Shown: positions 44,957 through 64,000 of the stretch, one piece after another
How positions within the stretch are numbered: the first letter of the stretch is position 1
Layout of the letters: each line of letters opens with the position of its first letter
From: Candidatus Poribacteria bacterium
Lineage (GTDB): Bacteria > Poribacteria > WGA-4E > PCPOR2b
Assembly (NCBI GenBank): GCA_965208675.1
Contig: OZ242351.1
Span: forward strand, 2,976,001-3,040,000
Reading direction: 5' to 3'
DNA length: 64,000 bases
Notes under the pieces: model-generated
Seen by the model: only the letters and a program-made list of their open reading frames with translations
Databases searched by the model: none
What the model was told of the DNA's origin: nothing
Position numbers and translations under genes: made by a program

Positions 44957-44986
44957 CCAGGAACGCTCATGGCGTCAATCGACGAA

Positions 44987-45849: not shown

Positions 45850-46040
45850 TTCACCTGGCAATTCTGCACAGAGTCTGCGCAACACAACAATTTACTACTA
45901 GTTGATTTCTTTGCGAGATTTATTGGCGTGCTTTTGTGGCATAGGAGAGTTGAGATTCAGAGGTACAGCCTGTGGGAGGTGTCGAGGAAACACCTCCTGC
46001 CACAGGATAAGGTAGTATTAAGCGAGGCGCGACAATTTAC

Positions 46041-46421: not shown

Positions 46422-46483
46422 GGTTTTTCCGTGTTTTCAACTCCATTGATGATAGTTAGAAGGGGCACGGGAATACAGGTGGG

Positions 46484-47080: not shown

Positions 47081-47277
47081 GATTTCCTCCTAGCTGTCAT
47101 CAATCAAATCATCCTCAAACGTATAATAAGCAACCAAGTCGCTACGAACCTAGAGCGTCCGTAATGCGCCCATACCCCGGCAGGAGACAGAACCGAGGAT
47201 AAACCTACCGAAAAATCTCATCAAGACGCCAAACGCGTCTAAGGGCATCCGACAAACTGGCTCTGGCGATAATATCC

Positions 47278-47674
47278 AGTTTCTGTAGGTTGGGTAGAGT
47301 AATTAATTCAAAAAACGGTTCAGCTTACAGTTAACCGTTCCGAATTTCTAATGATGCCGCTGCCAGTACACGCAGAGCAAAACCCAAGGATCAATTGAGC
47401 GAATAGCGAAGGCGATAGTCTTCAATATTAAAAACCTTCGGCAACCCTAGAAAATTCCGATTACAACACACCGCTCCGAATTCCAAATACTCTCATTGTT
47501 TTTCCTTGTTCCAATCGTGCTGGTGTTGGCGTGTGCCGGTCGGCTATCCGTACGTTTCAAAAACGTTGGGTTTCGCCACGGGCAAGTTACTAAAAACGGC
47601 GTTCGTTGTTTCGAACGGAATTTCTCCATAGGAATGTATTCGGTGTAACCCGCTCAACCCAACCTACAGAAACT
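47278..47674. repeat. Long REPIN-like element, copy B
   Basis: AGTTTCTGTAGGTTGGGT...ACCCAACCTACAGAAACT terminal inverted repeat; same orientation as copy A. Confidence 0.8.
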
Positions 47675-48125
47675 CAGCGGAGGAAATCAGGAGCAGACTT
47701 TTAAACTCCTGCCAGAATAACCAAGCGTCCCGCCACAATTCAATTTTTCTGAACACGGAATTGCGAATCTGCTATTGCTATTCGACCATTAGCCTCCTTA
47801 TCAATCGTAAGGGAAACTTTGCGATCTCCGTTTTTGTCGATAATATCGATTCGGCATCCAGACTCATCGCCAACCTGAATACAAATTCCCTCCAGATTTT
47901 CTTCAACATTTGTTTATAGCAGCGAGGCGGTTGTGAATACGATTTATGCCAAAGCGGCAAAGCGGTACGGCGGTGTGCGTGAGATTCTTCCCTTCCGTAT
48001 CGGAAAGTTGCGCAGCCATGCCGCAGAGAGAGGGGACAATCGCCATTATGTCTCTAATCACCGGGGTTATATTTAGTAAATCATGTGTTTGTGGCGCCAG
48101 GTTATCAAGAGTTGCACTATCGCGT

Positions 48126-49475: not shown

Positions 49476-49759
49476 GGCAAATTCTCCAACTGAATACACA
49501 TAAGATTTAGGAATTTCCAATACGAGCAACCGTCATTTTAGTCTATCTGAAATTTATGCGAACATCAATATCGACTGAAATCATCCCCAAAAACTGGACA
49601 GGCAATTATGGTGGATTTCGGTCGGGCAAAACGCTGTCTCACCAACCGGTTTAGCGGTTGCGTCGGCGTGAATTGCCGCGGGGTTGTGTAGAGATTTAAA
49701 AGCGTTGGGGTACGCTACGACCATTTCGCCAATAACAGCGTTCGGCAATAGGAACTGAA

Positions 49760-49807
49760 ATTCTCCGTAGGAATGTATTCGGCGTAACCCGTTTAACCCA
49801 ACCTACA
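49760..49807. repeat. Partial right end of the long REPIN-like element
   Basis: TTCTCCGTAGGAATGTATTCGGCGTAACCCG...ACCCAACCTACA matches 47621-47668. Confidence 0.7.
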
Positions 49808-49897
49808 AGAACTGATTGTGTGTATTAGCTTCAACATATCACTTCTCCTTAATTTTGGCAGTTGCCATCCCGATGTAAGTCGGCATCGGTACTGGAA

Positions 49898-52621
49898 TCA
49901 TTTAAGGATAACCATCCGTCTTGCAGTGGAGGAGTCTGTTGTGTCGAGTCTATAGAAGTATGGACTACTACTGACTCGCTCGCCGCGGTCATTCCGTCCA
50001 TCCCAATAGGCAGCTTTCTCCCGAGTCAGATAAGAACCAGCGGCTTGATTCCCCAGTTGGAGTGTACGTATACTGCGCCCCGATGCGTCATAAATGGTAA
50101 TGGACACTTCGGACACCTCCGCTAGCTGATACGGAATCCATGTTTCAGGGTTGAACGGATTTGGGTAATTCTGAAGCACTTGAGTGGTCATCGGCACCAA
50201 GTTGGTAAGCGTCGAATGCAGTGTTGAGTAAGCCCGCCGCATATCCTCCAGCGTAACCAGTTTATCTATCTTTCCAAATGGTTCGCCTGAAGTGGCATCC
50301 GTCACAGTCAAACGCAGTGTATCTCCAACGCGGACTAATGGGTTCCGGTTCATATCGGCGAAACCTAACGTCAATCGGGCCCCTGATTCCACGTTCGCGG
50401 TTGTAAGCAGGTTGTTCGTTCTGAGGTTTTTCACGGAAACATGGTAAGGTCCAGGGTAACCTTCTCCGTCTATCACGCCGTCAACAACAAATGCCCATAG
50501 ATTTTGCGGAATAGGCGTTGCCGATGGGGCTGCGATACCTTCCGCATCCGGTGAATCGCTCCAGCCTGCTCCCGTGAACTTGACATCGCCGCCATTAGGC
50601 GTATTGACGATATAACCGCGTCCGCCCTCAATCTGAAATCCGTCGCCCGGAGTATCACGAGTCCATGAGACGAATCTGCCTTCGTCAGAGATACTGATTA
50701 CCATCGTCGCGCCGATAAATTCCATGAAACTCCTAGCCGTATGCGGTTCCAATGGACGCAGCGGCAACGATATATTATTCAAGCCGTTATTTAAGGGCAC
50801 CGTATACGAGAGTTTGCCGGTAGCTTCCTCCGGCAGCACGACATCTTCAACAGAGCCGTCCAGCGTACTGACCATGGTCGCTAGATTGTTCGTCGCTCGG
50901 TGAAAAAACGGCGGCCAAAAACGTCTGGCGGCTTGAACCTTCTCAATCTCTTGCGTCGCCGGCGCCGATTCACCCGATGTCAGAAGGATGAATGCGACGC
51001 GAAAGTCCTTTTGGGAAGAATCAGCATGCGGGATTCGCTCTCCGTTTGCTGCGACGATGCCTTCAATGGTAACTTCCTCTTTCTCGCCGCGGAATGACAC
51101 GTCTGCCATTGGGTTTAGAAATTGCAAATCACCCCATAAACGCGGATTGTCGAACGGCGGCGGAATGTCTATATCATAGGGGTTTACGACTAGAAATGTC
51201 GGCGGCACCTCCTCCGGTCTTAACAAGCCCATCAAATATAAATCGAGCGGGCCGAATATATCTTTCGGGGTTAGCGTGGTGAAAGTCCCGTCTCCATTAT
51301 CCCGAATATCGTTGCCGCCCATAACCGAACCAGCCGTATGCAGGAAGAAGTTCCAATGCGTGTAGTCGCGTCCTAACAACTCGACCGGATTTATGTCAAC
51401 CCCCCAACCGTGTCCGAACTCGTGCAATACCACACTCAAGGTAGAAGTTGCAGCGCCGCTGACATTCTCCAATGGATTGTCAGACCATACCTTTAAGTTC
51501 TTCATCACGAGAAAAGTTCTTAGCCTGCCCAGACTGCCGTAATCATCGGTATGATCGAAAATCGGAAAAATATCACTACCGGCATAACCGCTGCCAATCC
51601 CTAAAACATCATTCTTGACGGGAACGGCAAAGGCGAGGACACCAAAGAGGTCTAAATCCGATTCAAAATTGGTAAAGAGCACCAGACTATCAAAGTCGTC
51701 GCCGTAGCTCTTATAAAATTCTCTCGCTACGTTCTGGATATTGACTGTCGATTCCGATACGAAAACTTCAGCGATGGCGCTTGTTGAGCCTTCAACCGGC
51801 AAATCATCAGAATAGTCCACGAGAGTTGTCTGCAAGGCGTTGTTAAGCCCGCCTGGGGATAACCCCACGATGCCAGTTCGGCTTTTGGACGATTCGAAAC
51901 GGATGTCGATGCCGCCCGTGTCGAATAGAACTATTTGCATCGTAATCTCGGAATCATAGCTTTCAAATGATGGAACATTGAACCAAGTGATTGTAATTTG
52001 CCCGGGTGTATCTTTAACTTCTACTGCCGTAGCTTCGTCACTAAATGTAAACGCATCGGGGTTTAAATCCGCATAAAGCGCACCGATGCGAGGCGGACCG
52101 CCCACAAAGTTTTGCAAATCCCTTGCCCGATGACGGGCGACCCCTGTACCGAATGTCAAGTTCCCATCAGAGTTGACGAAGACTTCGGTATACGCCTGTC
52201 CGAAAAACGTGAACGGGAATTCGATGGCAATCTTTCGGCTGTCATCATCGGTCAAATCCAATACTTGGCCGAAAGCCGCTTCAAATTCGACGTCATCGGG
52301 ACTAGACACATCGTATCCGCCCGCGGCATTGGGAGTAAATCGTAAACTGCTATTGGCTAAATCGAAAAAGTTTGTGGGTTGGACGAGGTGTTCGTTACCC
52401 TGAATGACAGCTATGTGTCCTACTTCAGTGGTTGTCGATGGAAAGCTAACTTCGCGCGCAGCATTAACGCTTAGTTGGTGATATGGGGCAGCGCCCGGTT
52501 TTGCCTGAGTTTCTAAACAGAAAAGAACTAAAAGTATTGTGGTTAAGGGCACTAGGATTTTGCGAATCTTCCTAAGCATGGAATCGAACATAACTTTCTC
52601 CTTATGTATGGTAGTTGACAC
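49898..52621 (-). CDS. Secreted protein with NIDO-like domain, HExxH metallopeptidase and FlgD-Ig tail
   Basis: FPFTFFG...VNSDGNLTF...YADL; LHEFGH; LQNYPNPFNPETWIPYQL. Confidence 0.8.
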   Translation of the reverse strand: MSTTIHKEKVMFDSMLRKIRKILVPLTTILLVLFCLETQAKPGAAPYHQLSVNAAREVSFPSTTTEVGHIAVIQGNEHLVQPTNFFDLANSSLRFTPNAAGGYDVSSPDDVEFEAAFGQVLDLTDDDSRKIAIEFPFTFFGQAYTEVFVNSDGNLTFGTGVARHRARDLQNFVGGPPRIGALYADLNPDAFTFSDEATAVEVKDTPGQITITWFNVPSFESYDSEITMQIVLFDTGGIDIRFESSKSRTGIVGLSPGGLNNALQTTLVDYSDDLPVEGSTSAIAEVFVSESTVNIQNVAREFYKSYGDDFDSLVLFTNFESDLDLFGVLAFAVPVKNDVLGIGSGYAGSDIFPIFDHTDDYGSLGRLRTFLVMKNLKVWSDNPLENVSGAATSTLSVVLHEFGHGWGVDINPVELLGRDYTHWNFFLHTAGSVMGGNDIRDNGDGTFTTLTPKDIFGPLDLYLMGLLRPEEVPPTFLVVNPYDIDIPPPFDNPRLWGDLQFLNPMADVSFRGEKEEVTIEGIVAANGERIPHADSSQKDFRVAFILLTSGESAPATQEIEKVQAARRFWPPFFHRATNNLATMVSTLDGSVEDVVLPEEATGKLSYTVPLNNGLNNISLPLRPLEPHTARSFMEFIGATMVISISDEGRFVSWTRDTPGDGFQIEGGRGYIVNTPNGGDVKFTGAGWSDSPDAEGIAAPSATPIPQNLWAFVVDGVIDGEGYPGPYHVSVKNLRTNNLLTTANVESGARLTLGFADMNRNPLVRVGDTLRLTVTDATSGEPFGKIDKLVTLEDMRRAYSTLHSTLTNLVPMTTQVLQNYPNPFNPETWIPYQLAEVSEVSITIYDASGRSIRTLQLGNQAAGSYLTREKAAYWDGRNDRGERVSSSPYFYRLDTTDSSTARRMVILK

Positions 52622-52807
52622 CGATATGCCAGTCGGTATCGGTACGGGTCAAAGTAAACTCACATCGGTCGAGAACACCCGTTGAGAATCTGTCTATAGT
52701 CTTTTCAAAATTTCCGCACCGGCGCCAAGCGCCGCCGGGACGCCGACGAGCAACGTCGGGTGTAGGGACTCAATTTATCACCCCCTTCTTTTTGTTTGCA
52801 ACTGCCT

Positions 52808-52863
52808 CTATTTTTTAATCTCGCCCCAAACGGCTGCGAGTGCGTGGTTTGAGGCGCCGGCGA
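52808..52863 (-). repeat. Isolated duplicate of the 3' end of the LamG gene at 53763-53818
   Basis: TTAATCTCGCCCCAA...CTGCGAGTG...TTTG.GGCG.CGGCGA is shared; encodes HALAAVWGEIKK*. Confidence 0.75.
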
Positions 52864-52882
52864 TTGGGGATCATCGCTAGAA

Positions 52883-53035
52883 CTATGAGCGGAAGTAGTC
52901 TAGGATATGGAATTCAAACACGTAGGCGATGACAAAATCGACAACGACGAGGAGGCACAATGCCATAAAGCCGACGAAAATCGCCGATAGGAAAAATATC
53001 AAGGTACAGTAAATTATGCGTCTGATGTTTTCCAA
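52883..53035 (-). CDS. 50-aa membrane peptide
   Basis: AAGGAGCCCTACAAT+TTG start; MENIRRIIYCTLIFFLSAIFVGFMALCLLVVVDFVIAYVFEFHILDYFRS. Not in the ORF track. Confidence 0.55.
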   Translation of the reverse strand: MENIRRIIYCTLIFFLSAIFVGFMALCLLVVVDFVIAYVFEFHILDYFRS

Positions 53036-53521
53036 ATTGTAGGGCTCCTTGAGTTAATGCCCGTGCCAAATGTTTTCATCGCGGCAATCAGACAATGCCT
53101 GCCGATATACCGATTACCTTTTTGTGTAATTCCACTTTCCCGTAAACTCACCGGACTGATAGATTTACGCTGTTCTGCGCTCGGCGTATTTCTTAGAGTC
53201 AATCTTGTCGCCATCTCCGCAGCCGTTCAGAACGAGCATACCGACGTTGAGGGCGACGAAACTTTTGTGGGACTGAGATTTTCACGTTCATAGCCGGCGT
53301 CGCGGTGGCGCTCGCCGGGCTAGTTCTTTACGGCAGATTGCAGTGTAATCTTCGGAGATGACACCATGCTGCTTGAAACTTTAGTGGCGTCGTTATCGCT
53401 TATTCTAGCCACGGGAGTATACCTCGCTAACAAGCGAGCCAAAGCACATCTTGCACTAAAGCACCCGCGTATCATCGGGGCTGGTGCACGGGCAATACAG
53501 CAGTGAGTTTTTTAAAGGCCG

Positions 53522-53707
53522 TTACTGCGGCATTAAAATTAGGTACGCCACCATCAGCGGTTGTTCGCCAGACATAAGTCCAATTGTTAAGTATACCTTC
53601 TCTGTTTTAGTTTCTGTAGCGTCTTGATTGATTTCAATATACGACACGGCAGTTGTATTTATGGCCAATCCATGATTTGGCGAAAATTCTTCAAGCAACA
53701 AAAACAT
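53522..53707 (-). CDS. Small hypothetical protein
   Basis: Strong RBS AAAAGGAGA within the repeated hairpin module; 'AINTTAVSYIE'. Confidence 0.6.
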   Translation of the reverse strand: MFLLLEEFSPNHGLAINTTAVSYIEINQDATETKTEKVYLTIGLMSGEQPLMVAYLILMPQ

Positions 53708-53762
53708 CGTAATTCTCCTTTTGTAAGAGATTCTTGGGGGAGTTGGCAGCCTCCCCTTTTTT
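53708..53762 (-). repeat. Hairpin+RBS boundary module, one of five copies (also 57296-57351, 59794-59829, 63446-63496, 63950-63988)
   Basis: Minus-strand consensus AAAAAAGGGGGAGGCNGCCNNCTCCCCCACAACCCTTACAAAAGGAGA. Confidence 0.8.
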
Positions 53763-54506
53763 TTACCTCTTAATCTCGCCCCAAGAGACTGCGAGTGTGT
53801 GTTTTGGGGCGACGGCGAGCACGGTTTTTAGCCCGCGGTTCATGACAGTACGAATGTCGCGTGGGGGGAGCGCGATATTGAATATGGCGAACTCGTCGAT
53901 AAGCCCAGGAAACCTGTTTGGCCCACCAATTATAAACCGGAGATTATTCCTGTCGTCGGGCGGAACGTATGTTGTCGATCTATTCAGTGATGCGAACAAT
54001 TCCCCATCCACATAGATAGCCATTAGATTTTTGCGCCTGCTATGCACAAACGCCCAGTGCCGCCAGACCTCCCGAGTTATCATGCCAGCTTCGATTACCA
54101 ATTCGACGTATGGCGATCCGCACCGCCAACGCACAGCTTCATCCCAAGGCAATAACACGGCGATAACCCCTTCTTTTTCATCGAATGGCTGTAACGTGCT
54201 AAATAGGCGGCCATTCAGACCGTCGAAATTCTTTGTCCACGCCATAACCGTTATTTCCTCAATTTGCTGTTCTGGCGGGAAATCCCTATATGTTGTGAGG
54301 TAGCTTACTCGAAAATTAAGGCATTTTCCAAACATGCCGTCAATCCATGCACGCTCACCTAACACCGATAAACGCTTGCCTGATGCACTGTAGGGGCGCC
54401 AGTCTTTGCCTTCGTTGAAAAGCTAGGCGTCGATAACTAAATCCTTGTTGGCGGCATGGACGGCGATTGCCGCTAAAAAGCATACTGTGCTAATCAGCGC
54501 TTTCAT
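53763..54506 (-). pseudogene. LamG-like jellyroll protein with an in-frame TAG at codon 28
   Basis: MKALISTVCFLAAIAVHAANKDLVIDA*LFNEGK... is in frame with the 53763-54365 ORF (GLIDEFAIFNIAL, LAVSWGEIK). Confidence 0.8.
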
Positions 54507-54984
54507 TAGCTCGCTCCTCGCTTTCCTTTCTGCTGCGTGCTCTCATTTCTTCAAACTGTTTATCAAATTCAGCCTTGAGTTTGGCTATCCGCGCCTTGCT
54601 TTCGACGCGATACGTATCACGGCTCGCTTCTTCTTTAAATTCGAGTTCTTTCGCGTGTTCCTCCCACGCCTCTTTGTATGCCTGCCAGTGTTCCCACCCG
54701 CCATGAAAGCTATTTATGCGGTCGTTGGGCGCGGGGGTTAGGGCGGAATGGATGATGTCCGATTCTTCAAACGCCTCGCTAACGCTCTTGCCGCGGCGGA
54801 TGGCGGCGGCGATCCAATAGCTTCTATTGGCTCCAAGAAGTTGGCCTAACAAAAAATGACCTTGACGGGGGTTGTCCGTATCGATTTTCTCCGGCGGGCG
54901 ACCGTACACCATGTCGTTGAGGTTATGGGTATGGCTGCATCCGAGGATGAGTAAACATAAGCAGCCGCTAATCAGTGCTTTCAT
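54490..54984 (-). CDS. Lipoprotein, tandem paralog B
   Basis: MKALISGCLCLLILGCSHTH; similar to 54968-55456. Confidence 0.8.
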   Translation of the reverse strand: MKALISGCLCLLILGCSHTHNLNDMVYGRPPEKIDTDNPRQGHFLLGQLLGANRSYWIAAAIRRGKSVSEAFEESDIIHSALTPAPNDRINSFHGGWEHWQAYKEAWEEHAKELEFKEEASRDTYRVESKARIAKLKAEFDKQFEEMRARSRKESEERANESAD

Positions 54985-55456
54985 GGGTATGCCCCTCTCT
55001 GCAACACGACTCTCTGTATTCTTCAAGCCTTTTATCAAAATCGGCTTTGATTTTCGCTTTCCGTGCGTCGCTTTCTGCCTTGTATTTTGCGCGGGATGCT
55101 TTCCTTTCCGCTTCAAGTTGAGCTGTATGTTCTTGCCACGACAGTCTATATGCCTCCCACGTATCCCAATCTGAATAATAGTCGGTGATTCTGTCATTGG
55201 GATTGGGGCTTATGGCATTATAGATGGCGTCCGCTTCTTCAAATGCTTCGTTGACACTCTTGCCGCGGCGGATGGCGTCGCTGATCCAGTGTTCCACATT
55301 GGCTCGGAGCAGGACGCTTAACAATAATTCGGTATCTTTGGGGTCGTCCGGATTCATTGTTTCCGGGGGGCGTGCATAGTGCATTTCGCTAATGTTGTGG
55401 GTATGGCTGCATCCGAGAATGACCAAACACATACAGCTGCTAATCAGCATTTTCAT
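54968..55456 (-). CDS. Lipoprotein, tandem paralog A
   Basis: MKMLISSCMCLVILGCSHTH; RBS AGGAGG. Confidence 0.8.
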   Translation of the reverse strand: MKMLISSCMCLVILGCSHTHNISEMHYARPPETMNPDDPKDTELLLSVLLRANVEHWISDAIRRGKSVNEAFEEADAIYNAISPNPNDRITDYYSDWDTWEAYRLSWQEHTAQLEAERKASRAKYKAESDARKAKIKADFDKRLEEYRESCCREGHTHESTD

Positions 55457-55677
55457 TTTGTTTCCCTCCTTTGTTTGGAAAGAGCAGGTTGGAGGAAACA
55501 CGCTCACTGGCTAGAATATGAACGCAGTCAAAATACCTGCTCTCTCCGTTGTTTTGACCGTGATATGTCAATCCGGATGACAACATCATCTGGTAGGCGG
55601 CGCGATACGACTTGTTTGCGAAAGTGTTAGGTGCGCATTGGGTGTTACCCGCGTAACCCAACGTACAAAGACTCCCT

Positions 55678-56229
55678 TTACCTTAGTTTCCGCCATTTCA
55701 TTGTTATGCGATTGTCGCGAGTTAAAGAATGCCAGATAAGCGTTAAAACAACGCCATCCCATTTGTATTCCAATAGGACGCCATAATTCCATCTAACATC
55801 GTAACTGTGGTATCGCATAAACAAGTATTTCGAGCTATACGCGAAAATCGCCGATCTGTGTAGTTGGATTCTGTAATATTTGGGATTATTGTCTTCAGGA
55901 TAAAAAGGGCTAACAGATTCCCATTCAGAATCGAAATTGTAGTCTTGTTCTATTACAAATTCAAATTTATGGTCTAGTTCTATAGTTAATTCGCCGCGCA
56001 TTTCTTCTGCATTTTCAACCAGCCAATCACGTCCGTCATTGTATGTCTCCAGCCGATACTTTCCGACCAAATCCTTGTGTAGCGCAACTGCTTCAGATTC
56101 ATGCGTGTGGTCGTGCTGATGGCTATGGTGATGGTCGTGTTCGTGCGGGTGTTCATGTTCAGCTATAGGGTGAGTGTGTCCGCACCCAGCAAGGACGATT
56201 AACGCTATTAACAGAATAAAAGCCTTCAT
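55678..56229 (-). CDS. Lipoprotein with N-terminal His-rich tract
   Basis: MKAFILLIALIVLAGC-GHTHPIAEHEHPHEHDHHHSHQHDHTHE. Confidence 0.8.
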   Translation of the reverse strand: MKAFILLIALIVLAGCGHTHPIAEHEHPHEHDHHHSHQHDHTHESEAVALHKDLVGKYRLETYNDGRDWLVENAEEMRGELTIELDHKFEFVIEQDYNFDSEWESVSPFYPEDNNPKYYRIQLHRSAIFAYSSKYLFMRYHSYDVRWNYGVLLEYKWDGVVLTLIWHSLTRDNRITMKWRKLR

Positions 56230-56392
56230 TGGGTCATCTTCCTCTTTGCAAGGTGTTGTGAGTAATTGGCACTCGATTCTTTCAGTCTGTTTAATCTGTA
56301 TCTCGACCTGTCTCATCGCTTCATCGTCCCAACCTTCGGGGAAATCCGCCTCAGTCACAACAACACCTCCTTTCAACCCGTGTCTAACAATA

Positions 56393-56884
56393 TCACTTCA
56401 AATGGCAGCGAAATGTGAGTTGTGCTGGCTTATAGCCCAAGCGACCAATTATTCGTCTAGCTAATTCCACCGTGCGATCGGCACCATGGTATTTTAACAC
56501 CCAGAGTTTTAGTGGATGCACAAATTCCCACCTCCTCTTGACTCTTGGGAGAGGCTGCTTAGCTGAAAATATAGAACACTTTAGCAATCCATCGTACAAT
56601 GCTTTTTTATCTGTACTACGCTCATGCAACTCTCGACACAAAAGCGGTAATACGTCTTTCCAATGTTCAACCTTGCATGTCCGCGTCCCCAATGTAAATG
56701 ATGTTGGCTTGGTATCGACATAGGAAGTTTCATCCGTGACATGATTTTCTTCATCGGTCGGTCGAACACTCATTATGGCTACCAAATCTTTTCTTAGACG
56801 TGCAATATCATCCTTAGTGGCTAGATTGGATAACGCTTCCTTCAAATCTTCTTTGGTGAGCGGTTCGCTTACTGGGTATGGCAT
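56393..56884 (-). CDS. Hypothetical protein with a short coiled coil and a domain like those fused to restriction proteins
   Basis: LATKDDIARL; KPTSFTLG...WKDVLPLLCRELH pattern. Confidence 0.55.
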   Translation of the reverse strand: MPYPVSEPLTKEDLKEALSNLATKDDIARLRKDLVAIMSVRPTDEENHVTDETSYVDTKPTSFTLGTRTCKVEHWKDVLPLLCRELHERSTDKKALYDGLLKCSIFSAKQPLPRVKRRWEFVHPLKLWVLKYHGADRTVELARRIIGRLGYKPAQLTFRCHLK

Positions 56885-56971
56885 TCGAGTATTCCCCTTA
56901 TGAGATAGACGACGCGGACAGAAGTATGTGGTGCGGTAGCCGACATAAGAGCCTTCCGCCCCCGTCATATT

Positions 56972-57295
56972 TTATTCGCCATACACTGTGACTGTATAGA
57001 CAGCATAAATCCCCAGCACACTTTTCGACGAATAGTCAACATGGTGAATCTTCGTAATGCCGCCGTTCTTGGCAGCAGCTTCAATGCTCGCATCTCCAGT
57101 TGCGACTAACCCTAATACCGAAGTTACGGTCGCCGAACCGGATTTCATAGCGGCAGTGTCGCTCGCAGTCGCCGTTACCGGTGCTTTAACATCGGTGTAC
57201 AATACACCGGTAACTGGCGACGTGCTATAAGCAACACAACCTGTTAGATAGGATATAGCTACTACAAGAATAAACAACATGCCGAGATGTCTCAT
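56972..57295 (-). CDS. TRL-like family lipoprotein
   Basis: LTGC; GVLYTDVKAP; SVLGLVATGDASIEAAAKNGGITKIHHVD. Confidence 0.8.
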   Translation of the reverse strand: MRHLGMLFILVVAISYLTGCVAYSTSPVTGVLYTDVKAPVTATASDTAAMKSGSATVTSVLGLVATGDASIEAAAKNGGITKIHHVDYSSKSVLGIYAVYTVTVYGE

Positions 57296-57351
57296 CGTAA
57301 TATCTCCTTTTTGTAAAGGGTTGTGGGGAAGGCGGCAGCCTCCCCCTTTTT

Positions 57352-57549
57352 TTATTTTGTTTGCGTCGGAATTAACAATCGTTCCAAGTACCTCCAATGC
57401 AATTCTAATGCCTCTGGGGTTCCCTTTTTTATTACTATAGCTCCGTGCTCTTCCGGAGCATAGCCTGCAATACGATTGCCCTCATGGACAATTCTCGTAA
57501 GCCGACTCGTATTTACTAGGGTACGATCGTCGTCGGTTTTTATAAACAT
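57352..57549 (-). CDS. Small hypothetical protein
   Basis: RBS GAAAGGAGGTG; 'LVNTSRLTRI' resembles 53522-53707 in layout. Confidence 0.65.
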   Translation of the reverse strand: MFIKTDDDRTLVNTSRLTRIVHEGNRIAGYAPEEHGAIVIKKGTPEALELHWRYLERLLIPTQTK

Positions 57550-57555
57550 TGAAAA

Positions 57556-57825
57556 TCACCTCCTTTCAGTCAGCTCTTCATCGCGGGAGGGTCTGTTGAT
57601 AATATCGATAAATCGCCCGTGTTTATCGACATATTCGATGGTACGCAATTCTTGGTTTGCCTTCTTTTTTTCTTCTGCCATATACTCAACCTACCAGGTC
57701 CTGTCTCTATCCAAAGTAATGGTGGTAAAGGGATGCTGGTTGGTATAGGACATGGCGTCTAAGAACCAAAAGCAAAATCCAACGAATGCGAGCGCGATTA
57801 TCGGGGGAATCAAGTTTCGGTTCAT
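57556..57825 (-). pseudogene. Truncated paralog of 59830-60174 with an in-frame TAG (57691-57693)
   Basis: Near-identical 5' sequence (MNRNLIPPIIALAFVGFCFWFLDAMSYTNQHPFT); TTG changed to TAG. Confidence 0.85.
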
Positions 57826-57857
57826 TTTGTTTTCTCGCTGACCGTTGGGGCGTATCG

Positions 57858-58250
57858 CTAATCGTCCACATCAAACCTAATATTTCGATAACCGCCGCGC
57901 CAGGAAATAACTAGGGGTGTTACCCCGCATAATGGTTTAAGAGGATTGTCATGAATGATTTTTGTCACCGCGTCATGTTTCCTGCTTACGTTCCACTCTA
58001 TCTCTGTCTGATATAACCCTTTGCAACCGCTGACGGTAACGTTTTCCGCAGGCCCGTCAAACTGTACGTAATACCTAATGCCTGAGCCCCAACCGCCTTC
58101 CCCCCCAGGCATTATACCGGAGGAAACGTGAATAATACGGGCATCTTCGGCATGGGAATCGCAGCCAACGAGCGCAACCAAGCAGATAACGACAGCAAGC
58201 GCCGTGATAATAGCGAGTAGCGGGGACAAGCGTTTGCGCAATCGGGGCAT
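57858..58250 (-). CDS. Hypothetical lipoprotein
   Basis: MPRLRKRL...ALVGC lipobox; start-associated sequence AAAGGCAGTCTACAATG. Confidence 0.65.
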   Translation of the reverse strand: MPRLRKRLSPLLAIITALAVVICLVALVGCDSHAEDARIIHVSSGIMPGGEGGWGSGIRYYVQFDGPAENVTVSGCKGLYQTEIEWNVSRKHDAVTKIIHDNPLKPLCGVTPLVISWRGGYRNIRFDVDD

Positions 58251-58293
58251 TGTAGACTGCCTTTCGTATGCCTTATAATTTAGTTTGAAAAAG

Positions 58294-58381
58294 GGTGGCA
58301 GCGGAGAGGTCGCAGCAAGGTTAAACCTCGCGGAGCCGCGGAAATGCCCCTCAGCATAACCGCGGCGTTTACTCCCTTCCA
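58294..58381 (-). other. ~90-nt long imperfect hairpin, copy 1 (candidate structured RNA or ssDNA element)
   Basis: Near-identical to 59701-59792. Confidence 0.7.
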
Positions 58382-58493
58382 CGATACCTTTCGTGCTTTG
58401 GGGGTGCGACAATCGCATAAAACATCCAAGCAAAGAAAAAGATTGTAAACAACTTTTCCCTGACATTGCAGGTCTCCTTATGATGCGCCTCGG

Positions 58494-58697
58494 TTAGAGA
58501 ACGCCTCCGAGTAGCCAGCCGAACCTGGATTCCACGGCAGCGGCGAAACACCATAGCCCGACAACGAAGACCAAAAAACCTATCCCAAAGAATCCCAGCC
58601 AAACCCAACCGGGGGGACCGTCTCGGCTCCAATCGTCTTCAATTTTACAACCTATTCCGAAAACAACTAGGAATACGATGATGGCAAGCGCTCCCAT
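58494..58697 (-). CDS. 67-aa two-TM membrane protein
   Basis: AAAGGAGACCTCTATG start; hydrophobic. Confidence 0.65.
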   Translation of the reverse strand: MGALAIIVFLVVFGIGCKIEDDWSRDGPPGWVWLGFFGIGFLVFVVGLWCFAAAVESRFGWLLGGVL

Positions 58698-58711
58698 AGA
58701 GGTCTCCTTTG

Positions 58712-58861
58712 TTAATGCCCAAGTAATGCGGCAAAAAAGCGAATGAATGCGTACATTAGGCTGCCGAAGATGAGTAAGACGGCAATCATCATCAATGCCC
58801 ACATGACATACGGCTCGACAAGCTCCCATATCAACAGCAGTAATCCTAGTAATTCCGACAT
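58712..58861 (-). CDS. 49-aa membrane peptide
   Basis: AAAGGAGACCTACAATG start; MSELLGLLLLIWELVEPYVMWALMMIAVLLIFGSLMYAFIRFFAALLGH. Not in the ORF track. Confidence 0.65.
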   Translation of the reverse strand: MSELLGLLLLIWELVEPYVMWALMMIAVLLIFGSLMYAFIRFFAALLGH

Positions 58862-58893
58862 TGTAGGTCTCCTTTGTTGGAGCGTATCGCTAG

Positions 58894-59298
58894 TTACTCT
58901 TCACCTAAAGCAGGATCTAGGTGTATTATTCCTCTTTTATCTATCATTGTAATGCCAGCCAGCAGGTCGTCATCAATAGCCATAGCAATTGATGAAGTGC
59001 CGCCATTGCCAGAGACTGCGACACGCCCTCCATACTTATTCACGCCAATTATTACGCCTCTATCACTGAATAGTTTAAAAGTATCCGTGAGAGTGTTGAT
59101 GCTTTCCATATTAGGAACAAGAATTATCCGCGTTGTGCCGTCCGTATCGACGACTCGCAAACTGGTACACTCAATATCTCCTAACTTTGCGCGTTCAGCG
59201 AAGAGGCTAGGCATCAAGACACTAGAGGCTATCATACCTATCAGCATCAATATCCCGCCGATTGTAATATAGGCTAACTTCTGTTTGTAAGTTTTCAA
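58894..59298 (-). CDS. Exported beta-rich protein, paralog of 60194-60604
   Basis: MKTYKQKLAYITIGGILMLIGM...GDIECTSL shared with the paralog. Confidence 0.75.
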   Translation of the reverse strand: MKTYKQKLAYITIGGILMLIGMIASSVLMPSLFAERAKLGDIECTSLRVVDTDGTTRIILVPNMESINTLTDTFKLFSDRGVIIGVNKYGGRVAVSGNGGTSSIAMAIDDDLLAGITMIDKRGIIHLDPALGEE

Positions 59299-59311
59299 TG
59301 TGTGCCTCCTT

Positions 59312-59638
59312 TTAGCACGAACCTGAAATTGCGCTTAAAATCCAAATGAACACTACTACACCTATGAAAGTAAGGCAACCAAAGCGTTTCATGAACGGAA
59401 TGGGACTACCATCAAGTTCAGATTCTACTTTATGTGTATCTAATTCCCACCCCCTTCCGCATATATCACAAAGCATGAGCCATTTTTTCTCAGTTACAAA
59501 ATTGAAAACCCAGTATACGCCCCAATGTCTATACTCAAGAACAAGCTTGAATCGCCGCTCTTTGTCACACACTTCGCAATGTTGCGTCGCAATCTGACCA
59601 CAATCAATTACATCACCACCAGATCCCCAAACAATCAT
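59312..59638 (-). CDS. Zinc-ribbon membrane protein
   Basis: MIVWGS...CEVC...CDICG, C-terminal TM helix; RBS GAGGAG. Confidence 0.75.
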   Translation of the reverse strand: MIVWGSGGDVIDCGQIATQHCEVCDKERRFKLVLEYRHWGVYWVFNFVTEKKWLMLCDICGRGWELDTHKVESELDGSPIPFMKRFGCLTFIGVVVFIWILSAISGSC

Positions 59639-59700
59639 GAGAGCTCCTCGCGGCCCTGTGTCGCACCGGGTTTCCGGGGGAGCCAGGGTCACCGCCATAA

Positions 59701-59792
59701 GGTGGCGGCGGAGAGGTCGCAGCAAGGTTAAACCTCGCGTAGCCGCGGAAATGCCCCTCAGCATAACCGCGGCGTTTAACCTCCCCTCCGCC
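59701..59792 (-). other. ~90-nt long imperfect hairpin, copy 2
   Basis: Stems GGCGGAGGGG/CCTCTCCGCC, AGGTTAAAC/GTTTAACCT, GCCGCGG/CCGCGGC, ATGC/GCAT. Confidence 0.75.
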
Positions 59793-59829
59793 ATAAGATT
59801 ATGGGGGAGGCGGCTGCCTCCCCCTTTTT

Positions 59830-60174
59830 TTATCTCTGTGGTCTTCTACCGGGGTTTCTCATTATCTCCGGGATGCTGGACGGATCCACATAAAAGGGTT
59901 CTGTTTTCAGCTTTTTCGGGCGTTTGATAACAGGGGTTCTGTGGGTAATATCGATAAATCGACCCTGCTTGTTGTGGACGTATTCGATGGTACGAAATTC
60001 ATAATCGTATTTCTTCTTTTCTTCTGCCATGTACTCAATCAACCAAGCCCTTTCTCTATCCAAAGTAATGGCGGTAAAGGGATGCTGGTTGGTATAGGAC
60101 ATGGCGTCTAAAAACCAAAAGCAAAATCCAACGAATGCGAGCGCGATTAGCGGGGGAATCAAGTTTCGCTTCAT
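59830..60174 (-). CDS. Membrane-anchored hypothetical protein
   Basis: AGGAGGGAAACAAAATG start; N-terminal TM helix; pseudogene copy at 57556-57825. Confidence 0.75.
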   Translation of the reverse strand: MKRNLIPPLIALAFVGFCFWFLDAMSYTNQHPFTAITLDRERAWLIEYMAEEKKKYDYEFRTIEYVHNKQGRFIDITHRTPVIKRPKKLKTEPFYVDPSSIPEIMRNPGRRPQR

Positions 60175-60193
60175 TTTGTTTCCCTCCTGTTGA

Positions 60194-60604
60194 TTACTGG
60201 CTATAGCCGTTTTTGTCGTAGATGGACACGGCGCCGTTGCCATGTTCGTTGATGCCCATGATGGCGTAGCCTTTCGATCTGCCATGCGTACTTACATAGC
60301 CGCCATGTTCATCAGTACCGATTCTCACTTGTTTATTATCTACAGCGTCACCCTCGCGGAGGAAGACATCACCGGCACCGATTATCGTAGCTCTTGTTGG
60401 AGCGTCTTTCCACATAGCAATGGATTGTTTACTAATAAGTATAAACGCATCTTCGAGTCCACTGCCAATCTTCAAGCTCGTGCATTCAATATCTCCGAAT
60501 TTATCCTGTTGTGCGGTTATAGGTGATAGCAGCATCCCAATAATGGTAAAAATACTGCCTAACGCCATTAGCCCTGCCTTTTGCTTCCAAGTGGTTTTGA
60601 TCAT
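60194..60604 (-). CDS. Exported beta-rich protein, paralog of 58894-59298
   Basis: MIKTTWKQKAGLMALGSIFTIIGM...DKFGDIECTSL; repeated 'EHGG/EHGNG' motifs. Confidence 0.75.
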   Translation of the reverse strand: MIKTTWKQKAGLMALGSIFTIIGMLLSPITAQQDKFGDIECTSLKIGSGLEDAFILISKQSIAMWKDAPTRATIIGAGDVFLREGDAVDNKQVRIGTDEHGGYVSTHGRSKGYAIMGINEHGNGAVSIYDKNGYSQ

Positions 60605-60804
60605 TTTCGAACCCCTTTTCTGAATTGGTTGTTCCACAAATTAAGAAACTCACGGAAGTCAGTCAATGCTTCGCATAATTGCTCAATTTTCTTATCTGTA
60701 GCATAATGAGTGCCAAAATTCCGAGCGTGGCGTAATGCTTCAGTAAGGTCGTCGATTTCGGAAAGTAGATACAAACGGTTGTCATCGCTGGATGGTGGTC
60801 GCAT
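60601..60804 (-). CDS. Small helical hypothetical protein
   Basis: AAAGGAGGTTACATATG start; stop overlaps the next ATG. Confidence 0.65.
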   Translation of the reverse strand: MRPPSSDDNRLYLLSEIDDLTEALRHARNFGTHYATDKKIEQLCEALTDFREFLNLWNNQFRKGVRK

Positions 60805-60872
60805 ATGTAACCTCCTTTTCTGTGGAAAATGTCCGATAATGTAGATTAGCGGACAGCCTTTCAGTCCGCTTT

Positions 60873-62579
60873 TCATCTCTTATAAGCCGACCGGTCAGTA
60901 TTCCCGCCGTATTTCATCGCATACACGAACATATTCACCATGAACCGATGCACGTCCGCGGAACGGCGCATCCGCAGCATTGTCCGGCTGGGGATTTCCG
61001 CCGTCTCCATCGCACAGAGATAATCCTTCCGATTGTACACCACTGCGAGGCGGCGCCCGATTGTAATCCCCTTCTGAAACTTAAACTTTGTCACCTTCGG
61101 GTTGTTTTCAGACCCCCAATACACATCAGACCCGTTCGGCGGAATAGACAGCTTGTAATAGATAGAATAAATCTCGTGGCTGTGGGGAACAGACTGGAGC
61201 GGGTATTCCGGCATAATTTTCTTCAATTCATCAGCGACACGCGCAGCGAACAAGCCCTTGAACCCGCAATCATCGAAAAATAGCAGCCCGCCGCGTTCCA
61301 CAAGATACTTTCTCATCGCCGACCGTTCTGCCGGTGTAAAGCCCGACAGCCACGGCTCGCCGCGCATCAGGTTACGGGTTGTGGTCAACTCCTTATCGTG
61401 ACCTGTCATGACAATTATCGGCGCATCGAGGATTCGCGGATCTGTCATCCGCATCGCGCCGCCCTCCAGTTTCATATCCGCACGCAGCCGAGTGTTGTCC
61501 GATAACCACCGCATGAAACTCGGCAGAGCTGACGGGTCTTGCCACCAATCTGCAAGGGAATGTATTAACCGAGTAAAGCGGATGTGACCTTGTATATCCG
61601 CGCCCTCACCCTCTAAAATAGCACCTAACTTATCATCAGGGACAGTCGTGATTTTAGCCAACGGGTCGTCTCCCGCGCCGCCGGCATCAGCAGCCCCGAC
61701 CGACCCCACCAGCGAGTCAATTCCGCTCGAATGAATCCCGCCGCGGCCGGGCCCGTTGATGTCGTCCGTACCCCGCCCGTGTCCGGTTCTGAGACCCCGG
61801 CGCCTTCCAACCCCCGGCGCAATAACCTCCTCATTGCGTCTAGTGTCAAGCTGTGCCGCCGTCGTGACAGGCGCATCGACAATCGCGTCGGGCGTCAACG
61901 GCGACACGTCCATTGATACGCTTCCCGGCGCCGGCGCAATCGGCTTAGCAATTCTTTGAGCAGCCGAAACGCGAACCGACTGGGCAATCGGTTTCACGGC
62001 TGGGCGCACCGGCTCCGGGGGTTTAGGCTTAATCTTTTTAGGGCGCCTAGTCTTTGGCACCGGCTTTACCATCTCCACGGCAATCGCATCTTCGATAACC
62101 TCCGCATCGTCGGTTGCCAGTATAAAAATGACAAAAGCCAAGATAACGTGCGCCACCGCGGAGATTAACATCGAATTGCGGACTTTACTACTCTTTTCGG
62201 TGACAACCGCCGCCGCGGCCTTGGACGCCAATGATTCGGGTGTGTATCCGGACGCGCTCAGGTAGTAGGTCTGTCCGCCGCAATCAACCTGCATCTGTCC
62301 ACCCGGGAGGCTCCGGAACTGGGCGCTTTCGCCTGCTCGGATTATTTCGCTCACCCGTATAATCGGCAGACTTACCGACCCCGGTTGTGCAATCTCCGCG
62401 TCGATTGTTATTTTTCGGTCTGCGGCGAAAAGCTCAAGCCTGTCAACGCCAATGCTCCGCACACGAACATCGGAAACATTCGATAGCTGATTTTCTCGCG
62501 CCGCCTGTGATTGGAGCGACTTAATCGCCTTCAGAATATTTGCTGTTTCTATCGTGAATTGCATACGGCAAGTATTCAA
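60873..62579 (-). CDS. DUF4159-domain membrane protein with an N-terminal beta-clamp-like domain
   Basis: C-terminal PIIVMTGH...RKYLVERGGLLFFDDCG...HEIY (DUF4159 pattern); central TM helix and Pro-rich linker; N-terminal ~110 aa align by eye to DnaN domain I. Confidence 0.75.
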   Translation of the reverse strand: MNTCRMQFTIETANILKAIKSLQSQAARENQLSNVSDVRVRSIGVDRLELFAADRKITIDAEIAQPGSVSLPIIRVSEIIRAGESAQFRSLPGGQMQVDCGGQTYYLSASGYTPESLASKAAAAVVTEKSSKVRNSMLISAVAHVILAFVIFILATDDAEVIEDAIAVEMVKPVPKTRRPKKIKPKPPEPVRPAVKPIAQSVRVSAAQRIAKPIAPAPGSVSMDVSPLTPDAIVDAPVTTAAQLDTRRNEEVIAPGVGRRRGLRTGHGRGTDDINGPGRGGIHSSGIDSLVGSVGAADAGGAGDDPLAKITTVPDDKLGAILEGEGADIQGHIRFTRLIHSLADWWQDPSALPSFMRWLSDNTRLRADMKLEGGAMRMTDPRILDAPIIVMTGHDKELTTTRNLMRGEPWLSGFTPAERSAMRKYLVERGGLLFFDDCGFKGLFAARVADELKKIMPEYPLQSVPHSHEIYSIYYKLSIPPNGSDVYWGSENNPKVTKFKFQKGITIGRRLAVVYNRKDYLCAMETAEIPSRTMLRMRRSADVHRFMVNMFVYAMKYGGNTDRSAYKR

Positions 62580-63445
62580 TCCTCAATTTTGAACCGATAC
62601 GGAACAATTATGCGGATTGTGACCGGTTTGCCGTCTTTTTGCGCCGGCTTAAACCGCGACCGTTTCAACGCCTCGATTGCTGCTTCATCACAGCCCATTC
62701 CAATTCCCGCTCTTACCTTAATATCTCTGGCTTTGCCGTCAATTCCGATGGTCGCCTCTAACTTCACAACCCCTTCTTTTCCGGCATGACGGGCACGTTC
62801 CGGATACTTCGGCTTCGGCTTATGGATGGCTTTCGGCGGTACGGTGTTATCCGTAATGTCCACGACGGGTACGTTGACAGTGTCGTCTAGCCCAATATCT
62901 GCGTCCGGGATGTCTGTCTCCATCTCGTTAAAAATTGATGGTCGGTCAGGCCTGGTGGTGGGAATCTTCGGCAATTCAGGTTCAATGCTTGGGCGTTCCC
63001 CTTCGGCAATTGGCGGCCTTTCAATCTTGGGAATCTCCGGCGGTGCATCAGGTGAGTCAATAACAAGGTTATCTGAAGGAACAGCATATCCGCCTGAGCC
63101 GGACGGAATGTCCACCGGTTTTACGGGCTGGCTGGGTCGGGTTGTCGGAGTTAGCCGTACTTCGGGTTTAATTGTCTTAGCTTCACGCTCAGGTTCACGA
63201 GGTGGGGGTTTAACCTTCTTCGCCTCAAACATTTCAGTTACCACTGCATCATCATCGTGAATCGCTACATTTTGGGCGATGTGAAAAGCGACAAACAGCA
63301 TGATGACCAAATGGAAAGCAAGAGATACAATCCACCCAAGAGATTTAGACACGCGATTTTTCTTTCTCTGCCGCCGCTCTAAAATCGGCTCAACCGCAGG
63401 AATCCGGCGTTTACGTTCATGATTTAGCGAATTTGACTTGGACAT
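62576..63445 (-). CDS. tonB: TonB-family energy transducer
   Basis: SLAFH TM motif, Pro-rich linker, PKYPERARHAGKEGVV...FKPAQKDGKPV. Confidence 0.9.
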   Translation of the reverse strand: MSKSNSLNHERKRRIPAVEPILERRQRKKNRVSKSLGWIVSLAFHLVIMLFVAFHIAQNVAIHDDDAVVTEMFEAKKVKPPPREPEREAKTIKPEVRLTPTTRPSQPVKPVDIPSGSGGYAVPSDNLVIDSPDAPPEIPKIERPPIAEGERPSIEPELPKIPTTRPDRPSIFNEMETDIPDADIGLDDTVNVPVVDITDNTVPPKAIHKPKPKYPERARHAGKEGVVKLEATIGIDGKARDIKVRAGIGMGCDEAAIEALKRSRFKPAQKDGKPVTIRIIVPYRFKIED

Positions 63446-63501
63446 GGCTCGAAAATCTCCTTCCTTTGTAAGGGGTTGTGGGGGAGGTGCCCCCGGTTAA
63501 C

Positions 63502-63633
63502 CTACTTTTTGCTAGATTTAGATTTGGGGTTAGGGTTGTTGGTTTTGCCTTTACCCGATTCTTTGCCGTGTACCTTACTTGGCTTATTCTGAGGGTAAAC
63601 AGCCTTACTTGCCTTTCCTTTTTGCTTTGCCAT
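63502..63633 (-). CDS. 43-aa Lys-rich peptide
   Basis: GGAGGTGATAAACAATG start; MAKQKGKASKAVYPQNKPSKVHGKESGKGKTNNPNPKSKSSKK. Not in the ORF track. Confidence 0.65.
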   Translation of the reverse strand: MAKQKGKASKAVYPQNKPSKVHGKESGKGKTNNPNPKSKSSKK

Positions 63634-63694
63634 TGTTTATCACCTCCTTCCTTTCTTTTATTGGCTGGGGCTGGTGAAATACGCGATTATATGA

Positions 63695-63949
63695 CTAATT
63701 GTTCCTTCTGCGTCTCTTATGAGGATTGCCTTTTCGCCAACCTGTTTGATATCCCCGCATATAATCCTTGCATGGTATATCAAAACAGATTGGACAATTG
63801 TTGGGAAATACTAATAGCCCAGTCTTGCCGTGCTCTAGCCCCTTCGCATAACCTTTGGCGTAATGACTAGAGACGGCATTCTTAGTTTTAGCTCCACAGC
63901 TCAAACTTAAAATTACCATTATTGTTAGAATAAGTGGTTTATACATCAC
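63695..63949 (-). CDS. Small lipoprotein with CxxC...C motif
   Basis: Lipobox LSLSC; YAKGYAKG...CPICFDIPC...YMRGYQTG. Confidence 0.6.
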   Translation of the reverse strand: MMYKPLILTIMVILSLSCGAKTKNAVSSHYAKGYAKGLEHGKTGLLVFPNNCPICFDIPCKDYMRGYQTGWRKGNPHKRRRRNN

Positions 63950-64000
63950 ATTGTGTAAGGGTTGTGGGGGAAGGGGTAGCCTCCCCCTGTGGAGAAGAAG

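Follow-up and report, generated by a model that had tools for sequence, protein, structure and literature searches.

Recurrent junction sequences between unrelated small genes in a variable chromosomal island of a Candidatus Poribacteria bacterium

The array and its junction sequences

The DNA stretch analysed here (the window, 64,000 nucleotides) covers bases 2,976,001-3,040,000 of the single-contig 4.89-Mb genome of a Candidatus Poribacteria bacterium (G000; GCA_965208675.1, contig OZ242351.1), and its last part carries an array of mostly small genes in which unrelated neighbors are joined by recurring junction sequences. Minus-strand open reading frames (ORFs) preceded by a Shine-Dalgarno (SD) sequence extend from 52883 to ~67565, overshooting the window end by 3.6 kb; the sequence past the window is given as L001, with L001:1 equal to window position 64001. 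The original prediction of a minus-strand array of about 25 small genes was borne out and extended, with ~31 mostly small loci counted from ORF lists and sequence, about half of which have a lipobox or a transmembrane (TM) segment as read from the sequences. The only Pfam families in the array were TonB_C, DUF4159, TRL and Laminin_G_3, and 25 of the 29 array ORFs scanned gave no family above the curated cut-off (weak matches to ZrgA and CEP63 below the cut-off were disregarded). No second genome copy was found for 18 of the 32 entries in the array gene list; the multi-copy exceptions were a family termed here GDIEC (~30 matches), LamG (42), DUF4159 and TonB, together with two lipoproteins that have a distant paralogue and the pairs within the array. 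The array and its junctions are as follows:

52883-64000, minus strand: window part of the small-gene array, which continues to ~67565 (L001:1-3565)
53709-53767, minus strand: module 1 at the junction of the putative LamG pseudogene and a 61-aa gene (nhmmer E=5e-10)
57299-57355, minus strand: module 1 at the junction of a 65-aa gene and the TRL lipoprotein gene (nhmmer E=1.5e-13)
59777-59834, minus strand: module 1 downstream of gene A, itself at 59830-60174 (nhmmer E=1.4e-10)
63453-63507, minus strand: module 1 between a 43-aa Lys-rich ORF and the TonB paralogue, with a 5-bp stem (nhmmer E=4e-7)
63940-63995, minus strand: module 1 downstream of the 103-aa gene of cassette D (nhmmer E=2.5e-10)
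60801-60884, minus strand: module 2 (GCGGAC hairpin, leader and SD), downstream of DUF4159
54489-54506, minus strand: 18-nt overlap junction ATGAAAnnnCTGATTAGC, with reading frames taken from the sequence
54967-54984, 55439-55456, 64791-64808, 65405-65422 and 66031-66046, minus strand: other copies of the overlap junction
60170-60188, minus strand: 19-nt start module AGGAGGGAAACAAAATGAA, identical at 55452-55470
58464-58874, minus strand: three consecutive AAGGAGACCT-type starts, at 58464, 58695 and 58859
53705, 57293 (spacer longer by one base), 64310, 65625 and 66917, minus strand: GGAGAnnTACRATG starts
58294-58386 and 59701-59795, minus strand: two copies of a ~90-nt structured repeat

Module 1, a hairpin coupled to a ribosome-binding site, runs in the order TAA stop, A-run, GGGGGAGGC-loop-GCCTCCCCC, ACAACCC-TTACA, AAGGAGA, TTACG and ATG, with hairpin arms G5AGG and CCTC5 and the tail ACAAYCC-TTACA. 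The hairpin spans 22 nt (a 9-bp GC stem with a 4-nt loop), lies ~20 nt from the SD and reaches a stability of -22 kcal/mol with z of about -4 in the best copies (-22.4 kcal/mol and z=-4.1 for the copy at 57299), the others being weaker. The five copies claimed originally were all recovered, with a sixth just past the window end at 64314-64371 (L001:314-371). In an nhmmer search of the whole genome all six copies fell within the array, on the minus strand and over 10.7 kb (53709-64371); the next-best match had E=0.86, and no copy outside the array was found by nhmmer or by pattern, so the modules are not scattered over the genome. Repetitive extragenic palindromes or bacterial interspersed mosaic elements, which come in tens to hundreds of dispersed copies, were rejected as an identity for module 1 on the same count of zero outside the array. 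No kinship was detectable among the twelve genes flanking the six copies, except that the copy at 64345 has next to it a short remnant of a 57549-like 3' end.

The covariance model of module 1 was run on 151 genomes of the order and gave strong matches only in G000 (5) and in two of its three congeners (G001, G002 and G003), namely G002 (3) and G001 (1), all remaining matches having E above 1e-5. The strict module pattern occurred in one record among the species genomes and in none of the viral and metagenome collections, the metagenome collection being one that may lack the organism. By alignment, the SD part of the copy at 63940 is deleted in G000 and present in G002. The G001 copy lies directly after an intact LamG paralogue at a different locus; its hairpin is ~90% alike by eye, and identity over the entire match, in which the LamG 3' coding part is included, is 70%. 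Given this likeness of the hairpin, module 1 appears to be conserved across the genus and not to be neutral debris.

No Rfam match was obtained at E<=0.1 over 44-64 kb and L001 1-6 kb. None of 19 sigma-70-like sites overlapped a module, although promoter types of Poribacteria may differ from the sigma-70 pattern, and promoter-like sites were fewer than in shuffled sequences (19 vs 25.8 +/- 4.4). Read on the plus strand, the modules are the top intrinsic-terminator-like sites of the region, the copy at 59777 being the best of them; as intrinsic terminators of the array genes they were rejected, the U-tract being missing on the coding strand. Riboregulation, in which the CCUCC 3' arm would sequester the downstream SD once the 5' arm is melted, was also rejected, as the folds made without the 5' arm did not surpass shuffles (z=-0.1 to -1.0).

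Counted with module 1, at least five junction families are almost confined to the array. Module 2 has a second copy at 66326-66423, both genome copies found by nhmmer lying within the array, and it was not found at the 3' flank of the DUF4159 paralogue or orthologues. The overlap junction ATGAAAnnnCTGATTAGC starts the downstream gene as MKxLIS and contains the TAG of the upstream gene, whose protein ends in NExxD; its 16-nt pattern ATGAAAnnnCTGATTA has six of seven genome copies in the array against 0.02 expected. The start module AGGAGGGAAACAAAATGAA is common to gene A and an unrelated lipoprotein gene, and both of its genome copies are in the array. The five starts originally described as AAGGAGACCT(A/G)CAATG were reduced to two exact copies, with three of the eight genome copies of AAGGAGACCT in the array, while a looser GGAGAnnTACR-start motif held up with six of 11 genome copies there (0.04 expected). 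Similarly, the proposed shared boundary TAGCGATACGCYCCAAC does have both of its genome copies in the array, but a single 17-mer pair of this kind is within chance (0.57 expected). The ~90-nt hairpin was confirmed as a duplicate, with copies 93% identical in blastn (97% over a 78-nt core) and z values of -3.7 and -6.7. These are its only two copies in the genome, each in a 5' leader within the array, with no match in Rfam or in G001-G003; the repeat may be a small RNA or a leader element.

With one mismatch allowed, 35 same-strand 17-mer repeat segments were counted over the whole 17-kb array; the figure for 30 random Markov-1 sequences was 0.57 +/- 0.84. The density of local repeats was nevertheless discarded as an outlier test, since 77 of 574 genome windows scored at least as high as the array when local exact repeats were crudely counted. 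What is unusual is the placement of the repeats at the junctions of unrelated genes, not their density. The genome maximum, over 1000 local exact-repeat segments, lies in a 17-kb window ~2.87-2.88 Mb upstream of the window start.

The island turns over between genomes, with breakpoints at locus-restricted junctions

The array lies in an island flanked on one side by genes for a TonB-dependent receptor, a lipoprotein, a BCCT transporter and a porin-like protein, this conserved left flank stopping at ~44635, and on the other by a PorV-like gene from 69565. Both flanks are kept in the three congeners, and the distance between them is 25 kb in G000, ~52 kb in G002, 4.3 kb in G001 and 1.6 kb in G003, in agreement with the hypervariable locus that had been predicted. 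The gap in G001 holds a HerA/NurA-like pair and a protein read as ferritin-like, and that in G003 only the ferritin-like gene. The middle of the G002 island matches, in inverted orientation, a G000 block located ~815-851 kb downstream of the window start and flanked by copies of a dispersed repeat of ~0.9 kb. The HerA-like ATPase and NurA-like nuclease are present at the hotspot in G001 and G002 (L013:14985-17781) and not in G000; the pair could be a defence-type module, and it marks the site as a general variable hotspot.

Six segments are common to the small-gene arrays of G000 and G002, in a different order and the same orientation. Cassette D (the 103-aa gene, 64001-64312 = L001:1-312) shows three mismatches and one 3-nt indel over 312 columns (98-99% identity). 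The likeness begins at the 3' arm of the upstream hairpin and falls off from the 5' arm of the downstream hairpin, with unrelated sequence outside; the syntenic flanks of the two genomes are 92-93% identical. This is suggestive of a recent exchange of cassette D, and no proof of it. Gene A is common to the two arrays from its SD to the hairpin of 59777-59834, and in G002 the module-2 leader is joined to gene A exactly at AAAAGGAGG, two genes intervening in G000. The TonB gene is shared from its start codon to just past its stop codon, DUF4159 is represented in the G002 island by a 150-nt 3' remnant only, and a GDIEC gene is shared over its first 165 nt only. Altogether, a start or stop codon is no more than ~20 nt away from ten of the 12 segment ends; three of the 12 ends fall in module-1 hairpins and three more at an SD or at module 2. 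The original claim of gene gain and loss by recombination at the modules is upheld as regards where the segments end (10 of 12 at modules, starts or stops); as the cause of the gain and loss, such recombination is a proposal.

Metagenome contigs from four sponge runs of four studies were compared at 90% likeness; they are short, and the array parts that they leave uncovered are uninformative. One contig of run X7 joins 57327, in the 3' arm of the module at 57299-57355, to 62512, the two being separated by 25 other letters. In one contig each of X7 and X8 (two runs, two studies) 521 nt are skipped, with 40 nt intervening; the skip is equivalent to one overlap-junction unit (gene 54490-54984). 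These joints agree weakly with exchange at the junctions. The protein of cassette D was not found in the metagenome contig collection, which may lack the organism.

Duplicated, decayed and neighboring genes

Further features of the array and the island are as follows:

57556-57825, minus strand: truncated second copy of gene A, with an in-frame TAG at 57691-57693
53763-54506, minus strand: LamG gene (Laminin_G_3 at 53763-54365), with an in-frame TAG at 54424-54426 after codon 27, past the signal peptide
52808-52863, minus strand: LamG 3'-end remnant
56972-57295, minus strand: TRL lipoprotein gene (Pfam TRL)
60873-62579, minus strand: extra DUF4159 paralogue (Pfam DUF4159)
62576-63445, minus strand: extra TonB-C paralogue (Pfam TonB_C)
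44635-52882, no strand assigned: remainder of the variable island, with repeats, two genes without assignment, a GHL15-like gene and a 907-aa protein

The dispersed duplicates named in the original prediction were all recovered at varying identity: 87% nt for gene A (59830-60174) and its second copy (57556-57825), 86% for the LamG 3' end (53770-53818 and 52815-52863), 52% aa in blastp for the tandem pair 54968-55456 and 54490-54984 (period 472), and 29% aa for 60194-60604 and 58894-59298, with a closer copy at 65645-66007 (63% aa). The predicted nonsense-inactivated copies were likewise found, with TAG in LamG and in the second gene A copy, and a GDIEC gene at 66046 has an in-frame TAA (L001:2020-2022, approximate position). 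Relatives that are intact at the equivalent position exist for each interrupted gene, in the first gene A copy, the G001 LamG paralogue and the G002 GDIEC gene, and the three interrupted genes are read as probable pseudogenes and not as cases of recoding.

The LamG gene ends in the motif W[GA]x[IVL]K, with 0-6 further residues before the stop (WGEIK on LamG, 53763-53783), and this C-terminal motif is also present on the GHL15-like gene (48126-48155). The motif ends 51 ORFs of >=100 aa genome-wide against none for the reversed motif. It accounts for the repeated "LamG 3' end" and might serve as a C-terminal sorting signal not recognised so far. The GDIEC family has ~30 paralogues, including 60194-60604, 58894-59298 and L001:1645-2007, with a cluster ~853-862 kb downstream of the window start. 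Every named relative found was from Poribacteria (36 matches), and the family has no Pfam entry. The proteins have a TM helix at the N-terminus and a conserved KFGDIEC motif, and an AF2 model (pLDDT 81) shows a beta meander of nine strands; searched with Foldseek against the PDB, the model gave nothing at E<=0.001 and only weak similarity to single-layer beta-sheet or beta-helix proteins.

The TonB-C and DUF4159 genes abut with no SD between them and share 70% and 80% aa identity, respectively, with copies at separate loci. At the nt level these paralogues are 78-79% identical, with similarity confined to the ORFs; capture precise to the ORF was dropped as evidence, the non-coding flanks being unalignable at 78-79% in any case. 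The 907-aa protein (49898-52621) has a metalloprotease-like HEFGH (HExxH) motif and, at its C-terminus, a tail of the FlgD_ig/T9SS type; in the congeners its orthologues are at unrelated loci, and the tail has ~40-55 matches per congener genome.

Both island edges (68200-69560 = L001:4200-5560, and 44755-45534) are dense in non-coding dispersed repeats that occur genome-wide and have no Rfam match; among them are ~100-170-nt units in dozens of copies and the ~0.9-kb element, which has copies of 83-94% identity at five other loci. The dispersed repeats at 44755-45534 lie within the island, and those upstream of the array (68.2-69.56 kb) form a non-coding stretch of repeats found genome-wide. 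The next genes past the array encode a PorV/UPF0164-like protein, a 1005-aa protein, a solute-binding protein and DUF6785, and farther out ORFs were read, without family search, as ThiS, ThiO and ThiC. The window holds no tRNA. The nearest ESM Atlas clusters of an array protein are labelled Candidatus Poribacteria, and the public sequencing runs containing parts of the stretch are sponge metagenomes, none of the runs listed being of RNA.

Known systems and competing explanations

No integrase, recombinase, structural, replication or phage gene was found between 44.6 and 84 kb in ORF lists and family scans, in line with the original prediction, which had also seen no canonical attC. The integron integrase model TIGR02249 gave at best 41 bits (cut-off 265) for a Xer-like gene ~1.9 Mb away. 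On inspection, with no attC covariance model run, the array showed neither attC R/L boxes nor a GTTRRRY core. Three Y1 transposase genes exceeded their cut-off, all of them >480 kb away. PHROGs matched none of 20 array proteins, and viral contigs contained neither the module pattern nor relatives of the cassette D and GDIEC proteins. The array is not an integron, a prophage or a transposon. The original alternative of an early region of an integrated element extending past 64 kb did not hold: the array ends at ~68 kb in dispersed repeats followed by chromosomal genes.

Two phage systems resemble the array. In promoter early stem-loops (PeSLs) of T4-like phages, a stop codon within an AT-rich tract is followed by a polyG/polyC stem-loop and then by an SD and a start (PMC2839356). 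They sit in hyperplastic regions of orphan genes, with recombination between copies, and modular shuffling at these small regulatory cassettes is documented (PMC2839356, PMC4122927). Common to PeSLs and the array are the composite cassette, leading from an upstream stop in an A/T-rich tract through a stem-loop to a downstream SD and start, and the hyperplastic regions full of small orphan genes, with no dedicated recombinase invoked. In PeSL phages mini-circles form, and indels and replacements between close relatives end in the cassettes; the six of 12 G000/G002 segment ends at module-1 hairpins, an SD or module 2 may be a parallel to the latter. However, PeSLs belong to phages and the array to a bacterial chromosome; a PeSL carries a sigma-70 early promoter, whereas none was detectable in the array modules (0 of 19 sites); there are six copies of module 1 against ~50 PeSLs per phage; and the T-run of the array hairpin is antisense only.

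Start-associated sequences (SAS) and extended SAS (ESAS) of Cluster K mycobacteriophages are conserved SD-containing sequences with a 13-bp consensus, 3-7 bp before starts, and close upstream of about half of the SASs there is an inverted repeat with a short spacer (PMC3203893). As in the array, an SD-containing sequence precedes the ATG of unrelated genes in one orientation (PMC3203893), is absent or nearly so from the remaining host genome, and is accompanied by an inverted repeat for which compensatory changes do not support RNA pairing. The starts of the array, of the AAGGAGAnnTACRATG type, do not match the 13-bp consensus, and its inverted repeat, ~20 nt away from the SD, has a GC stem of 9 bp closed by a 4-nt loop. 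The array is chromosomal and not phage-borne, and its link to gene turnover is the stronger. In the literature searched no comparable cassette shuffling was found for Poribacteria or for a bacterial chromosome.

With integrons the array shares co-directional, promoterless small genes, mostly of unknown function and each followed by an imperfect inverted repeat, and cassette boundaries that appear to fall within the inverted repeat. The attC sites of integrons measure 57-141 nt and carry R/L boxes. The array, in contrast, has no IntI, a 22-nt hairpin and six copies for ~31 genes; its repeats are alike in sequence, other junctions are hairpin-less, and its genes decay in place. Accessory hotspots such as the minimal mobile elements of Neisseria, in which differing gene sets without mobility genes lie between conserved flanks and exchange is attributed to homologous recombination, are similar in having variable genes between conserved flanks and no mobility genes. 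The array adds to this internal junction cassettes that apparently act as anchors beyond the flanking core genes.

We consider it probable, with considerable reserve, that the array makes up the small-gene portion of a hyperplastic island in the chromosome of a Candidatus Poribacteria sponge symbiont, with junctions that are expression signals and crossover points of general recombination. The accessory genes, mostly lineage-specific lipoproteins and membrane-anchored proteins, are joined by a few composite junctions, each supplying an upstream stop (TAA in the A-run or TAG inside CTGATTAG), a GC hairpin and a strong SD with a fixed spacer and start. The junctions would be primarily expression signals for promoterless genes in a co-directional array. 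Since junctions of 20-60 nt recur between unrelated genes, they could also supply the general recombination of the host, or template switching during replication, with homology or microhomology. Genes might then be lost, copied, rearranged or exchanged in units that run from one junction to the next, as at PeSLs. We infer that the exchanges are due to the junctions and require no dedicated enzyme, and the hairpin may have some role as RNA; the few events seen suggest recombination mediated by the modules, and a dedicated recombination "system" is not indicated. In a bolder form, the stop-hairpin-SD-start cassettes would be a chromosomal recombination currency, a cellular counterpart of PeSLs that allows hairpin-to-hairpin swaps of promoterless envelope genes within and between species, either integrase-free or through an unrecognised hairpin-acting enzyme; this we regard as unlikely.

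A number of observations weigh against crossover at the junctions. The events are few, and G002 is the sole close comparator that shares cassettes. Breakpoints at junctions would also be expected from random breaks followed by selection, because almost all intergenic DNA is module and only survivors with intact genes are visible. Two of the 12 segment ends are intragenic (the DUF4159 remnant and the body of the GDIEC gene). The identity of cassette D places it in no more than the top 2% of 312-nt flank windows, or 0.7% if the indel is counted once, and the metagenome joints are weak, their sides being ~20 nt long at 90% likeness. Compensatory changes are not seen in the hairpin, with no pair altered on both sides and a result no better than shuffles. 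The coding strand has no U-tract, an A-run preceding the hairpin and ACAACCC following it, and a T-run follows the hairpin only on the plus strand, antisense to the genes, where alone it is terminator-like. Nonsense codons in at least three genes suggest relaxed selection, a KYGDIECESF fragment ends the gene at 64808, and a deletion remnant lies at 64.39 kb; such chimeras point to events away from the junctions.

The nonsense-interrupted genes, remnants and chimeras are the reason why plain duplication and decay remains a serious and strong rival. Local segmental and tandem duplications would here have copied genes along with their junctions, and divergence, pseudogene formation and random deletion would later have left the junctions best conserved, as carriers of stop, SD and start signals with no part in recombination. 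The tandem pair of period 472 and the other local paralogues fit such birth and death, as do the three nonsense-interrupted genes, the 3' remnants and the deletion remnant; the module copies are alike without covariation, as they would be under recent common descent, tandem paralogues elsewhere also share start regions (for example in the GDIEC cluster ~860 kb downstream), and 77 of 574 windows equal the array in local repeats. However, with twelve unrelated genes at six module 1 copies, the duplicated unit would have to lose its gene each time; homology to G002 switches inside hairpins and at an SD without gradual decay; and one leader is joined to different genes in two genomes. On balance we find this explanation somewhat unlikely. 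Capture of a phage or mobile element, of whose early or accessory region the array would be what is left, with PeSL- or ESAS-type regulatory cassettes as junctions, is suggested by the many tightly packed small orphan genes on one strand, by the junction architecture, by the lack of modules elsewhere in the host genome and by the absence of the island from two of three congeners. It is made highly improbable by the PHROGs result (0 of 20), by the lack of viral-contig relatives of two array proteins and of the module pattern there, by the missing integrase, structural and replication genes over 44.6-84 kb, by sigma-70-like sites that avoid the modules (0 of 19) and by the chromosomal paralogues within the array (TonB, DUF4159, LamG and the GDIEC family).

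The least probable explanation is a dedicated site-specific or single-strand hairpin system, integron-like or HUH/RAYT-like, with its enzyme encoded elsewhere in the genome. Three boundaries with G002 (upstream and downstream of cassette D and downstream of gene A) and one metagenome joint do lie at or near the loop, cassettes seem to span from a 3' arm to the next 5' arm, and Y1 transposase genes are present in the genome. Nevertheless, the best TIGR02249 score is 41 bits against a cut-off of 265, the 22-nt hairpin is read as having no attC-like R/L boxes and no GTTRRRY core, and there are only six copies in the genome and three in G002. Moreover, the crossover positions are unlike at the two ends of cassette D, and other boundaries lie at SDs or start codons without a hairpin.

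If the junctions of this chromosomal island are crossover points, they would represent an integrase-free diversification of surface proteins in uncultured symbionts, and surface proteins matter in interactions with phages and hosts. If they are only inherited expression signals, the locus would be an ordinary plasticity zone with an unusually uniform translation-initiation context. Should the former be true, junction repeats restricted to one locus and placed between unrelated genes would be a signature by which similar regions might be recognized in other genomes.

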